Shown in pieces: positions 3,756-52,537 of a stretch of 64,000 bases of DNA. Within the stretch, counting starts at the first letter, position 1, and every line of letters begins with the position of its first letter. The DNA is from a phage. Both the position numbers and the translations under genes were made by a program. The DNA lies in the sequence record PZ402301.1; one strand, 5' to 3'. A model generated the notes under the pieces. That model saw only the letters and a list, made by a program, of their open reading frames with translations, ran no database searches and was not told the origin of the DNA.

Positions 3756-4064
3756 TTATTTACCAATAAATTGAAGTAAATGCTCAACTTTCATGCCATT
3801 AACGGAAATCAATTTGTCAATAGAAAAACCTCGCCATGCACCGAGCTCAACATCAAATACCGGAATCATATCAGTAGATTCTTTCCGAGTAGATTCAGTC
3901 AATTTACCGGTTTGCATAGTTGGCATAAAGTCAGCATCACGAGTGCCTTTCATAGTACGAATAGTACCATCAGACTTTTCAAAAACCACGTTTGAAATAC
4001 CCATGGACAATTTAGTTTTCAAAATTTCACGAATTGCTACTTTCTGTTCAGTTGTCAGTTTCAT
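3756..4064 (-). CDS. hypothetical protein, 102 aa (31.1 position)
   Basis: ORF track; between 31 and cd as T4 31.1/31.2. Confidence 0.6.
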   Translation of the reverse strand: MKLTTEQKVAIREILKTKLSMGISNVVFEKSDGTIRTMKGTRDADFMPTMQTGKLTESTRKESTDMIPVFDVELGAWRGFSIDKLISVNGMKVEHLLQFIGK

Positions 4065-4301
4065 TTATTTACCTATTACAGTTTTAATATGAGTTGTTCC
4101 ACGTTCTTTAAGAGTGGAAAGCAATTTTTGGCATTTTTCTAAATCAGATTTCCAACTATACGGTCTATCAATACAAACCCATTCTGACTTATAATACTGC
4201 TTCCATTTAGAGAAAAAATATTTCTTATACTCTACAGCAAATGAAATGTTCTCATTAGAATAAGAACTAATTGCTGTGAGCTGTACCAAACGAAATTTCA
4301 T
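4065..4301 (-). CDS. hypothetical protein, 78 aa (31.2 position)
   Basis: ORF track; start abuts stop of upstream cd. Confidence 0.55.
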   Translation of the reverse strand: MKFRLVQLTAISSYSNENISFAVEYKKYFFSKWKQYYKSEWVCIDRPYSWKSDLEKCQKLLSTLKERGTTHIKTVIGK

Positions 4302-4882
4302 TATTCACCACAGAATTCGTTGATATTTTCCCAATTTAACTTATTCAAGTTTTTCTTAGGAACATTAAACACTTCAATACCCGCATTTCGCAGAATATCA
4401 TCCCAGCCAGGTTTATTTTTATCGTATGTTTCGCAATAAACCAACTTTTTAATTCCAGATTGAGCTATCGCTTTTGCACAATCTGGGCAAGGAGAAAGTG
4501 TTACATACATAGTAGCACCTTCAATTGAAGAACCATTTCGCGCAGCAAACAAAATCGCATTTAGTTCAGCATGAATTTCATTTTTAGACGACCATTCAGA
4601 GTGAGCACTACGGTGTTCTTTCGCCAAAACAAAACGATCAGTTGAACCAAACGATACACATTCGGGCTTATGTCCTTGAATGATAGTATGTTTAGGTTTA
4701 TTCAACAACCAACCTTGCTCAGCAGCATAATCACAACAGTTCACACCACCTGCCGGAGAACCGTTATATCCGGTAGAAATAATACGTCCATTCTTTTCAA
4801 TTACTGCTCCTACCTTCCAGGAGCAACATTTTGATTCTTGTGATACTAAATATGCAATTTGAAGTACTGTACTCGCTTTCAT
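4301..4882 (-). CDS. cd: dCMP deaminase
   Basis: 193 aa; cytidine/dCMP deaminase zinc motifs HAELNA and PCPDC in translation. Confidence 0.9.
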   Translation of the reverse strand: MKASTVLQIAYLVSQESKCCSWKVGAVIEKNGRIISTGYNGSPAGGVNCCDYAAEQGWLLNKPKHTIIQGHKPECVSFGSTDRFVLAKEHRSAHSEWSSKNEIHAELNAILFAARNGSSIEGATMYVTLSPCPDCAKAIAQSGIKKLVYCETYDKNKPGWDDILRNAGIEVFNVPKKNLNKLNWENINEFCGE

Positions 4883-50100: not shown

Positions 50101-51420
50101 TCATACGTAAAACACATCATAACGACCACGAGTGACACCAACATAAAGAAGCTGCTGAGCTAGTTCAGCATCTGCATAATGGATACAAGGCGTATAGATA
50201 AAAGCACGGTCTACAGACATGCCCTGAGCTTTATGGAATGTTGATGCAGGAAGTGCTTTCACTTTACTAAACTGCGATTTAGCATCCCAAAAATCACTCC
50301 ACGGAGCTTTTCCACCTTTATTCCAATTTTTATAAGTTTCTGCCGTTTTACCTAAAAATAAGTTAAACTTATACAGCTCTTCATCAGATGAAATTATTTT
50401 AATCTTTTCACGATAATATTCATCATCGCCGTAAGTTTCTACTGTTAAATCCCAATGACGAATTAGATATTCTCCAGAAACACCACGAGCTTTAACAAAC
50501 GTCGATGTATACTCTGCTTCTATAATACGAACTAATTGTCCGTTATTAAAAATAATTTCTGACACAGGCTTTCCATCAATTTTATATGTTTTAATTAATG
50601 GTTCCTGCATTACAATAATTTCACCAACGATAAAATCTTTATCAGTTTCAAAAATCTTTTTGCGAATAATGTTATTTAACTTATCAACAGATTTATTCGT
50701 AAATGCCATTACACGATTTTCAAACAAATCATCTAGTGATTTTACGATTGAAAAATAATTTACCATAAAATCGCGTAAAGCGGTATCACCGGTAAATCCA
50801 CGTACTCCATGTCCGTCAATAATTTTATCATAAATCCACTTACCGTTACGAACATCAGTAGCTACATCAATAATAGGAGCATTACTGCGTTTAACTTCAG
50901 TGAGTTCACATTGATAAAAATCTTTGTGCGTAAAGAATGGACTGATATAAGCAGTGTTTTCTCCTGGGTCAACAGGTCTAATTTGCTTATTATCGCCTAT
51001 TCCAATTATAGTACACCATGGCGGGATAGTCGAAAGCAGAATTTTAAATAGCTTTCTATCGTACATTGACACTTCGTCGCAGATTAATACTCTACATTTA
51101 GCCAAATCCGGTACTTCTTTTTGTTCAAAAAGAACGTTTTCTTCATATGTTACTGGGTTAATTTTGAGAATACTGTGAATAGTACTCGCTTCTTTCCCTG
51201 ACAGTTTTGAAAGAATCTTTTTAGCCGCATGTGTAGGAGCTGCTAAAATAATTCCAGTTTCGCCTGTAGATATTAAAGCTTCAATGATGAACTTAGTAAG
51301 AGTAGTCTTACCAGTACCGGCAGGTCCATTAATAGTTACATGATGTTTCTTTTCTTTAATAGCCCTCATAACGATGTTAAAGGCATTTTTCTGACCTTCG
51401 GTCAAATCATCAAATGTCAT
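50101..51420 (-). CDS. dda: Dda DNA helicase (SF1)
   Basis: 439 aa, T4 Dda length; Walker A GPAGTGKTT. Confidence 0.9.
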   Translation of the reverse strand: MTFDDLTEGQKNAFNIVMRAIKEKKHHVTINGPAGTGKTTLTKFIIEALISTGETGIILAAPTHAAKKILSKLSGKEASTIHSILKINPVTYEENVLFEQKEVPDLAKCRVLICDEVSMYDRKLFKILLSTIPPWCTIIGIGDNKQIRPVDPGENTAYISPFFTHKDFYQCELTEVKRSNAPIIDVATDVRNGKWIYDKIIDGHGVRGFTGDTALRDFMVNYFSIVKSLDDLFENRVMAFTNKSVDKLNNIIRKKIFETDKDFIVGEIIVMQEPLIKTYKIDGKPVSEIIFNNGQLVRIIEAEYTSTFVKARGVSGEYLIRHWDLTVETYGDDEYYREKIKIISSDEELYKFNLFLGKTAETYKNWNKGGKAPWSDFWDAKSQFSKVKALPASTFHKAQGMSVDRAFIYTPCIHYADAELAQQLLYVGVTRGRYDVFYV

Positions 51421-51728
51421 CGTAAATTCCCTGCAATTGGTATACTAACAATACGCCCAGTATCTAAAATTCGCCGATATAATCTTTGTGTGTCTACATC
51501 AGGCTTAACATGTTTAACTTCTATTTTATTAAACCAAAACTTGCGTGGAGTCTCAACTAATCTCGGAATTCCCATACCTAAAGCTAGTCGATACTGATCT
51601 TTAAGAGTTGTAAATACTTTATCAGCAATCTCCCTTTCAAAAAATACAGCAGGACGATGTTCATCAAGAGGAACAGGCACCGCAAATCCATCTTTATCTC
51701 TATACACTATCGCATATACATAAAACAT
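51417..51728 (-). CDS. hypothetical protein, 103 aa (dda.1 position)
   Basis: ORF track; coupled to dda start. Confidence 0.55.
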   Translation of the reverse strand: MFYVYAIVYRDKDGFAVPVPLDEHRPAVFFEREIADKVFTTLKDQYRLALGMGIPRLVETPRKFWFNKIEVKHVKPDVDTQRLYRRILDTGRIVSIPIAGNLR

Positions 51729-51729
51729 A

Positions 51730-52476
51730 TTATCCTCGGATAAGTTTAAAAATTGAACAATTTAGCGGGTATCCTCTTTTCAGTTTAAGTTTATCAATAA
51801 AAGACAAGTTTTGATACCGCTCTACACCTTGAATAATTTTATCACACATATCATATTGCATTTCTGCTTCTGACAACTTTTTCACGGTTTTCCAATCTGA
51901 GCCTTTAAGAAGAACGTTTAATTTAACAACTTCAGCGCCTTCTGCTATACGAGAACCATCAATACGAGCTTTAAGTGCTATAATCGTTAGCTTAACGTCA
52001 GAAGTTTGTTTTGATTTAGAAAGCTGAGAAATGTGCTCAATTCGGTTTTCACGTTTTTTCTGTATAGCTTTAATTTGATTATAAGTCTTTTTGATTTTAG
52101 CCCATTTCTTTTCATCTAAATTTAGTTTATGAACTTTTTTCGCAGATGAACGACCAATTCGCAAAGCAAATAAATCACGCTTTTCAATCAACTCTTCTAA
52201 AGTATAATCAGAACGAAATGTATTATACTTTTTCTTTACTGCAATAACATTCCCTTTAATGTATCCAACGTTATTATCAAAACGTTCTAATGATAATTTC
52301 TCTCCTTCAATACGATTATCAAAAGGTTCTCCTGAGTAAGCGCAAACTTTCTGATCTAAAATGTTCTTAATGTAATTGAAGTCTAAGTTAAAATCTTTAG
52401 AACGTCTTTTAGCAGATGCCTGAGTATGCTCTAGACGACGTGTAATTTTACGAATTTGATTTTTAGACAGTTTCAT
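51730..52476 (-). CDS. hypothetical protein, 248 aa (T4 srd position) with degenerate HNH-like segment
   Basis: ORF track; segment CAYSGEPF...SLERFDNNVGYIKGNVIAV resembles a degenerate HNH fold; positional srd assignment. Confidence 0.6.
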   Translation of the reverse strand: MKLSKNQIRKITRRLEHTQASAKRRSKDFNLDFNYIKNILDQKVCAYSGEPFDNRIEGEKLSLERFDNNVGYIKGNVIAVKKKYNTFRSDYTLEELIEKRDLFALRIGRSSAKKVHKLNLDEKKWAKIKKTYNQIKAIQKKRENRIEHISQLSKSKQTSDVKLTIIALKARIDGSRIAEGAEVVKLNVLLKGSDWKTVKKLSEAEMQYDMCDKIIQGVERYQNLSFIDKLKLKRGYPLNCSIFKLIRG

Positions 52477-52502: not shown

Positions 52503-52537
52503 TTATACTATAACATTTTTACTTCAGCTTGTAAACA
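52503..52537 (-). promoter_or_regulatory. early promoter-like element
   Basis: GTTTAC (rc of 52531-52536), TATAGTATA -10. Confidence 0.5.

Follow-up and report, generated by a model that had tools for sequence, protein, structure and literature searches.

A PacI-like His-Me finger domain predicted in the T4-type phage protein Srd

The srd gene and its surroundings

The open reading frame considered here lies on the minus strand at positions 51730-52476 of the window, by which is meant the whole 64,000-nucleotide stretch of phage DNA that was analysed, and it encodes a protein of 248 amino acids followed by a stop codon. The source genome is that of a Tequatrovirus (T4-like), and the gene was identified as srd from the list of open reading frames, a PHROG profile search and synteny. 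Residues 4-248 of the product match phrog_1400, “Srd anti-sigma factor”, with an E-value of 1e-107, the 1.2 kb around the reading frame are 99% identical to many Tequatrovirus genomes in which srd is annotated at this place, and the gene order is modA-srd-dda.1-dda, with modA upstream of srd and dda.1 and dda downstream, so that both full-length similarity and synteny indicate orthology to T4 Srd. The protein as a whole is basic, with a pI of 9.95.

The genes downstream are tightly packed: a single base separates the stop codon of srd from the start codon of dda.1 (window 51728-51732), and the stop codon of dda.1 overlaps the start codon of dda by 4 nt (window 51417-51420), a spacing which suggests that srd, dda.1 and dda may be translationally coupled. 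The labels given to dda.1 differ among GenBank records, where it appears as “antitoxin”, as “general stress protein” or as hypothetical. The 116-bp spacer between modA and srd contains a promoter-like site, TTTACA-17-TATAGT with an extended TG (52507-52535, minus strand), which was found by a consensus scan alone and could serve as an early srd promoter; the number of sigma-70-like promoter matches in the modA-srd region equals that expected from shuffled sequence.

The position of srd is the same in 498 of the 503 matching phage records, and this constancy marks it as a fixed early gene, unlike mobile genes; neither the sporadic presence nor the intronic or intergenic location that characterizes homing genes is found for srd itself. 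The 64-kb window holds no further copy of the Srd N-terminal domain. The present analysis concerns a segment of the protein, KVCAYSGEPFDNRIEGEKLSLERFDNNVGYIKGNVIAVKKKYN, which covers Srd residues 43-85 (window 52222-52350) and in which the sequence-only reading had recognized the spacing of an HNH (His-Me finger) nuclease motif with the catalytic His and one Cys replaced, proposing that the protein could be an inactivated homing-endonuclease relic recruited as a nucleic-acid-binding regulator.

Predicted structure of Srd

AlphaFold2 models were obtained for full-length Srd, with a pLDDT of 87.8, and for residues 1-98, with a pLDDT of 91.7 and values above 88 in the core. The AlphaFold2 model, Foldseek and the family profiles together delimit a predicted N-terminal PacI-type His-Me finger domain (residues 1-98; 52183-52476, minus strand). 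It opens with two helices, placed by DSSP of the models and by conservation at residues 5-24 and 33-40 (52357-52464, minus strand), in a region where S21-A22-x-x-R25 and F29-x-L31 are conserved and which aligns with PacI residues 30-63. These helices are followed by the predicted beta-beta-alpha-metal core (residues 61-88; 52213-52296, minus strand), which aligns with PacI residues 89-116 and in which DSSP of the AlphaFold2 models assigns a strand to residues 61-65, an omega-loop to 66-76, a second strand to 77-81 and a helix to 82-88. The predicted fold therefore contains the elements expected of a His-Me finger, a beta-hairpin that includes an omega-loop and then an alpha-helix. The first strand ends in E64-R65, the omega-loop carries Y72, and N76 and N85 lie at the beginning of the second strand and in the helix respectively.

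When the full-length model was used as the Foldseek query, most of the matches were coiled coils and PacI ranked fourth; because these coiled-coil matches swamped the search, the N-terminal domain (residues 1-98) was modelled apart. With this domain as the query, the top match in the PDB is PacI (3ldy_A), with a probability of 0.98, a query-normalised TM-score of 0.62 and an rmsd of 4.1 over 97 columns, at an E-value of 0.14 that is not significant by itself. The lower-ranking matches, which have low probabilities, are to the HNH domain of Cas9, a type II restriction endonuclease (4l0k) and ColE7. Structure prediction, which the sequence-only reading had named as a check on its proposal, thus returns a beta-beta-alpha core whose first Foldseek match in the PDB is a His-Me finger enzyme. 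Among predicted viral structures the domain has 91 matches at E<=1e-3, which comprise Srd from other T4-like genera and a large number of uncharacterised proteins from podophages, cyanophages and giant viruses. The giant-virus proteins among the structural matches include examples from Klosneuvirus and Pithovirus, and one of the viral-structure matches carries the name “HNH endonuclease”.

The rest of the protein is of a different kind. AlphaFold2 helices, Foldseek and the pI outline a basic helical or coiled-coil region (residues 93-233; 51778-52200, minus strand), with helices predicted at residues 93-112, 122-153, 159-191, 194-222 and 226-233; the C-terminal half of about 150 residues, made of strongly basic long helices, has a pI of 10.1. 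The only profile matched by this part is phrog_1400, and Foldseek returns generic coiled coils for it. The protein ends in a tail that is conserved in the orthologue alignment, RGYPLNCSIFKLIRG (residues 234-248; 51733-51777, minus strand), in which G235 is invariant and P237 nearly so.

Sequence links between Srd and His-Me finger families

Searches with the single sequence of Srd are silent about any nuclease relationship: no Pfam family is matched, and no HNH-type model (HNH, HNH_3, Endonuclease_7 and others) appears at E<=10, so that the comparison with Pfam HNH profiles suggested by the sequence-only reading gives no support; no NCBIfam model and no PDB sequence is matched either. A profile built from Srd orthologues only finds no nuclease family and no solved structure, and a Pfam scan of the 146 best distant relatives at E<=1e-3 assigns no domain family to the region homologous to Srd. 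A few relatives carry the tag “PF27269 YonG_N”, which was rejected as a label for the domain, since the match is faint and sits in their N-terminal zinc ribbon.

The same Pfam search bears on the name of the protein. Srd stands for “similarity with rpoD”, database annotations call it an anti-sigma factor and in a review table it figures as a decoy of sigma-70/sigma-38, all of which would favour the view that it acts on RNA polymerase as an anti-sigma factor or as a decoy of sigma-70/sigma-S. No sigma-70 domain is matched in Pfam at E<=10, however, the predicted structure combines a His-Me finger with a helical bundle, and later experiments indicate RNase E as the target; the sigma-70 decoy was rejected as being without any profile support, and we regard an action of Srd on RNA polymerase as very improbable.

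Profile-based searches do connect the domain to His-Me fingers. Srd residues 10-98 match phrog_3322 “endonuclease” with an E-value of 2e-18, phrog_3118 “HNH endonuclease” with 7e-17 and phrog_1035 “endonuclease VII” with 2e-7. When profiles of 33 and of 80 diverse domains of the family were searched against 177,635 PDB sequences, PacI ranked first in both cases, with E-values of 0.0065 and 0.0035 respectively, and the longer family-profile alignment spans residues 30-119 of the 142 residues of PacI. Comparison by hhalign of the 80-domain family profile with an endonuclease VII alignment of nine sequences, built from phage genomes, gives a P-value of 3.2e-4 and a probability of 38.6%, with the family pattern Q-x-G-x-C / S-L-D-R-I-D in register with Q-x-x-x-C / H-L-D-H-D-H of endonuclease VII; the result is significant only with this nine-sequence alignment, and a comparison of the family with a single endonuclease VII sequence is not significant. 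The profile of phrog_1035 provides a bridge between the two proteins, since residues 9-76 of T4 endonuclease VII map to its positions 148-221 and residues 14-127 of Srd to its positions 129-249, and the resulting offsets set D40-H41 of endonuclease VII on E64-R65 of Srd and N62 on N85. By sequence profile, then, the domain belongs with the His-Me fingers through PacI, endonuclease VII and phrog_1035.

Taken singly, the links from the Srd domain to solved structures are modest, with an E-value of about 4e-3 in the profile search, a Foldseek E-value of 0.14 and an hhalign probability of 38.6%, and these statistics, together with the lack of a Pfam match, are what could be said for the view that the HNH-like spacing arose by chance in an unrelated fold. 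Against that view, four independent lines (the structure search, the family profile against the PDB, the profile-profile comparison with endonuclease VII and the PHROG bridge) share one register, in which the conserved residues fall at the catalytic positions, and this makes a chance resemblance, in our judgement, highly unlikely. The HNH-like spacing noticed in the sequence-only reading is accordingly real: it stands above chance in the PacI profile matches, in the endonuclease VII comparison (P 3.2e-4) and in the first rank of PacI in Foldseek. That reading had named the lack of a significant HNH profile match or of fold similarity as what would count against it, and the outcome is divided, in that the Pfam HNH profiles are without a match, yet similarity in fold and in family profile is present.

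Conservation of the active-site positions

Among 18 Srd orthologues, with identities down to 31%, C45, E64, R65, G71, Y72, N76 and N85 are invariant. The wider family was counted over 337 domains from 293 proteins, which share the signature S/N-A-x-x-R ... C-A-Y-[ST]-G ... [ST]-[LI]-[DE]-R-[IVF]-[DN] ... G-Y ... N-[VI] ... N-x-x-[KR], and the pentad [D/E]-R-Y-N-N contained in it is whole in 322 of the 337. Conservation and the alignments place E64-R65 (52282-52287, minus strand) at the canonical D-H position, which is D92-R93 in PacI and D40-H41 in endonuclease VII. The acidic residue that precedes the His position in His-Me fingers is present as D or E in 336 of the 337 domains, and the following position is Arg in 332 and His in none, so that the canonical catalytic His is absent from the whole set. 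Y72 (52261-52263, minus strand), in the omega-loop, is equated with PacI Tyr100 on the basis of conservation and the PacI literature; the position is Tyr in 331 of the 337 domains and His in the remaining 6 (P0118, P0226, P0229, P0236, P0280 and P0287, which read G-H-I-K-G-N there and keep D-R...N...N). N76 (52249-52251, minus strand), conserved in all 337 domains, aligns as the central Asn of H-N-H (PacI N104), and the helix residue N85 (52222-52224, minus strand) is the predicted metal-ligand Asn, aligned with PacI N113 and endonuclease VII N62, with Asn found in 332 of 335 domains.

The significance of this pattern depends on PacI, which published work describes as an active restriction enzyme without the catalytic His, in which a Tyr of the omega-loop fills the role of that His and one Asp and one Asn are the ligands of the single metal; the residues called catalytic there are Arg93, Tyr100 and His42. 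The correspondence with Srd extends along the core: E64-R65 pairs with D92-R93, D67 with D95, G71-Y72 with G99-Y100, N76 with N104 and N85 with N113, and a basic residue follows the helix Asn in both proteins (R88 in Srd, K116 in PacI). Both have Arg at the His position and, at +7 from this Arg, the omega-loop Tyr (R65 and Y72 against R93 and Y100). Residues E64, R65, Y72, N76 and N85 of Srd thus appear to reproduce the active-site constellation of PacI. The exception appears to be His42, since PacI G41-H42 aligns around S26-K27/D28 of Srd, in a stretch where the HMM alignment is of low confidence, and the family has no conserved His there. Because the only recurrent replacement of the omega-loop Tyr among the 337 domains is His, which amounts to an exchange between two possible general bases, the substitution pattern at the Y72 position argues for chemistry there rather than packing.

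The zinc sites present a different picture. The C45-A-Y-S-G “knuckle” (52330-52344, minus strand) is, from conservation and the alignments, a remnant of a CxxCG zinc knuckle in which C45 occupies the first Cys position of the CxxC pair, aligned with PacI C66 and with the first Cys of C23-x-x-C26 in endonuclease VII, and the second Cys is replaced by S48. No second knuckle Cys occurs at the S48 position in any of the 337 domains, so that the family contains no CxxC knuckle, and the Cys residues on the helix side are lost as well, with K81 and Y84 of Srd standing where PacI has C109 and C112. C45 itself (window 52342-52344) is Cys in all 337 domains despite the absence of all its zinc-site partners, and it may serve in structural packing, in redox chemistry or in catalysis.

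These counts decide how much of the original interpretation can be kept. The residue mapping of the sequence-only reading was right in that the catalytic His is replaced, by R65, and in that Cys has been lost, and it was incomplete in that not one but three of the four zinc ligands have been lost. Its wider claim survives insofar as Srd has a true His-Me finger motif without the canonical His and zinc Cys in a regulator-like host-takeover protein, and fails in calling the motif degenerate or inactivated, because the same arrangement of Arg and Tyr is found in PacI, which is active and has the same “missing” residues, and because the pentad is invariant in the orthologues and conserved in the related domains. 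Judged by the alignments, the substitutions in Srd are a variant conserved across the family and not decay specific to Srd, and the traits that were read as decay, the absence of His and the scarcity of Cys, are largely those by which an active variant is defined.

It could still be supposed that Srd is an inactivated homing-endonuclease relic in which the fold is a mere binding scaffold and the conserved residues are structural. This would agree with the absence of the canonical His and of three of the four zinc Cys, with the lack of a Pfam HNH match, with the regulatory nature of the known function of Srd, and with the constant, non-mobile position of srd in about 500 Tequatrovirus genomes. 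The residues missing from Srd are, however, those whose absence typifies active PacI, and invariance of the putative metal ligands and of the Tyr is unusual among exapted His-Me fingers, so that we consider an inactivated relic rather unlikely.

The wider phage family

In a search of 1.84 billion cluster representatives with a profile of the first 98 residues of the Srd orthologues, 9,670 proteins score at E<=1e-3, of which 685 reach E<=1e-10, and the Srd-domain family, as delimited by this profile, is very large, mostly of phage origin and without a curated Pfam model. In many relatives a single polypeptide contains 2-4 copies of the domain in tandem, an example being P0040, of 852 aa. The names that relatives bear in GenBank are Srd or anti-sigma factor, HNH endonuclease and, in one case, “restriction endonuclease pacI-beta-alpha-metal hnh motif”; the depositors of MW202701.1 had labelled its member of the family, in Podoviridae sp. 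ctYwJ313, as PacI-like. No paper was found that ties Srd to HNH or PacI, and automated annotations of its relatives already hint at the connection.

Relatives are located in crAss-like contigs, in the structural module, and in large phage contigs. Free-standing genes of the family are found at 4001-4504 of a crAss-like contig, beside structural genes, and at 2237-2806 of ctYwJ313 (MW202701.1). Both the ctYwJ313 and the crAss-like members lie directly beside the gene for the major capsid protein and other structural genes, which is where free-standing homing endonuclease genes are typically found.

A further member is found in Pseudomonas phage Drael01 (PP179320.1), where a codon-precise insertion of 772 nt (2151-2922) splits the RNA polymerase gene within the conserved motif ...AKTPV|MTYVYGATL..., the uninterrupted polymerase of phage Misse flanking the insertion as residues 1-449 and 450-669. 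The insertion contains a reading frame of 174 aa with a zinc ribbon and an Srd/PacI-like domain (HMM E-value 1e-20), which has Q at the position of R65, and it gives a sub-threshold match to a group I intron (25.6 bits, E-value 0.0017). No such insertion is present in the related phages Misse, Bertil, Strit and MKPT02. From these features the RNA polymerase gene of Drael01 probably harbours an intron-borne homing endonuclease, and it is plausible that the family includes catalytically competent members, insofar as homing needs cleavage. The intron-style arrangement in Drael01 supports the homing-endonuclease ancestry proposed for Srd in the sequence-only reading, whose suggestion of kinship is also in keeping with the resemblance of other relatives to homing endonuclease genes.

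A class of “PacI-like” phage HNH endonucleases was named in a 2025 study of Skunavirus (PMC12724721), which tested one PacI-like HNH enzyme for marker exclusion; the two enzymes for which activity was reported did not include it.

Possible roles of the two parts of Srd

In published work, Srd binds RNase E in its catalytic N-terminal half, and it speeds the decay of host mRNA. We consider it likely that Srd is a two-part protein, a PacI-type finger joined to basic helices, that acts as an adaptor for RNase E. Residues 1 to about 95 would form a zinc-less PacI-type His-Me finger, with Arg in place of the canonical His, that engages nucleic acid by binding metal and the phosphate backbone, and residues from about 93 to 248 would form a basic helix bundle, found in Srd orthologues only, that dimerises, docks on the catalytic half of RNase E, or does both. 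Such an adaptor would pass host transcripts to RNase E, in keeping with the published phenotype. What the analysis shows is the homology, the predicted fold and the conservation of the residues; the division of labour between the domains is one that we infer.

The finger domain may, somewhat less probably than not, be catalytically active as well. An active Srd would be a Tyr-dependent PacI-type metal nuclease whose catalysis is essential to its role, nicking host RNA or the cytosine-containing DNA of the host, and 5'-monophosphate ends produced in RNA could speed the action of RNase E. This would account for the retention of the whole PacI-like pentad across deep divergence, for the replacement of its Tyr only by His, which is also a general base, and for the presence of relatives at homing-endonuclease-like positions, and it takes on weight from the fact that inactivated His-Me fingers usually lose these residues. 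On the other hand, the zinc sites are absent, an equivalent of PacI His42 appears to be missing, the Skunavirus PacI-like enzyme tested for marker exclusion was not one of the two active ones, and reviews report only stimulation of RNase E through binding of its N-terminal half. The effect of Srd is also reported, by Qi et al. in 2015, to vanish in RNase E-defective cells. An enzyme of this kind is a possibility that we hold tentatively, below an adaptor whose finger binds nucleic acid. That cuts made by Srd, as 5'-monophosphate RNA ends or as nicks in cytosine-DNA, set off an RNase E-dependent collapse of host mRNAs is a slightly more doubtful step; if it were true, the family would be an unrecognised class of Tyr-type HNH nucleases used in homing and in host takeover.

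Srd, on the evidence of profiles and predicted structure, is a PacI-like, zinc-less His-Me finger fused to a unique helical domain. The recognition of a PacI-type domain corrects the long-standing annotation of Srd as an anti-sigma factor and, since the predicted active-site constellation is intact, makes the mechanism of this RNase E activator, as adaptor or as enzyme, directly testable. Few phage proteins are known to reprogram the RNA degradosome of the host, and Srd is one of them. The use of Tyr instead of His is not confined to one restriction enzyme and some giant viruses, and the Tyr-type variant is represented by a very large zinc-less phage family which includes an intron-associated member.

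Comparison with known systems

[quoted passage not shown] PacI differs in having two Cys4 zinc sites, neither of which is found in Srd, where a single Cys is retained, and in being a homodimeric DNA restriction enzyme of 142 aa, whereas Srd is an RNase E activator with an added basic helical domain of 150 aa. In the His-Me classification of Jablonska et al. (2017), PacI is placed in “group 20”, which was described as consisting mostly of giant-virus proteins and does not include Srd or the large phage family.

The PacI-like phage HNH endonucleases belong to the same domain family as Srd (family HMM, E-values 1e-20 to 1e-27 for the Drael01 and ctYwJ313 members). They are phage-encoded, are often of 120-190 aa and in some cases have an N-terminal zinc ribbon, and their genes occur sporadically, inside or next to conserved genes, whereas srd is an early gene of fixed position whose product serves in host takeover and has a unique C-terminal domain.

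T4 endonuclease VII (gp49; Pfam Endonuclease_7) has the Q-x-G-x-C knuckle, the L-D-[H/R]-x-D strand and the helix Asn in register with Srd, and both are proteins of T4-type phages in which a His-Me finger is followed by a helical region. Unlike Srd, endonuclease VII is a resolvase of DNA junctions that carries the canonical D40-H41 together with a Cys4 zinc site, and the kinship of the two is visible with profiles only (P 3e-4).

The MH1 domain of SMAD, the nuclease-like domain of Enpp and the C-terminal domain of yeast Tcd are exapted fingers in which a nuclease fold is found in a non-nuclease protein, as the sequence-only reading had proposed for Srd. These inactivated fingers have lost the general base and the metal ligands; Srd, unlike them, keeps all of the PacI-equivalent residues except, apparently, His42.

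RapZ offers an analogy in function only. Like Srd, it is a binding partner of the catalytic N-terminal half of RNase E and stimulates cleavage; it has no relation to Srd in sequence or fold, and it is specific for GlmZ, whereas Srd acts on bulk host mRNAs. The combination of an RNA-binding module with a module that contacts RNase E is the mechanism that, by analogy, would apply to the two parts of Srd.
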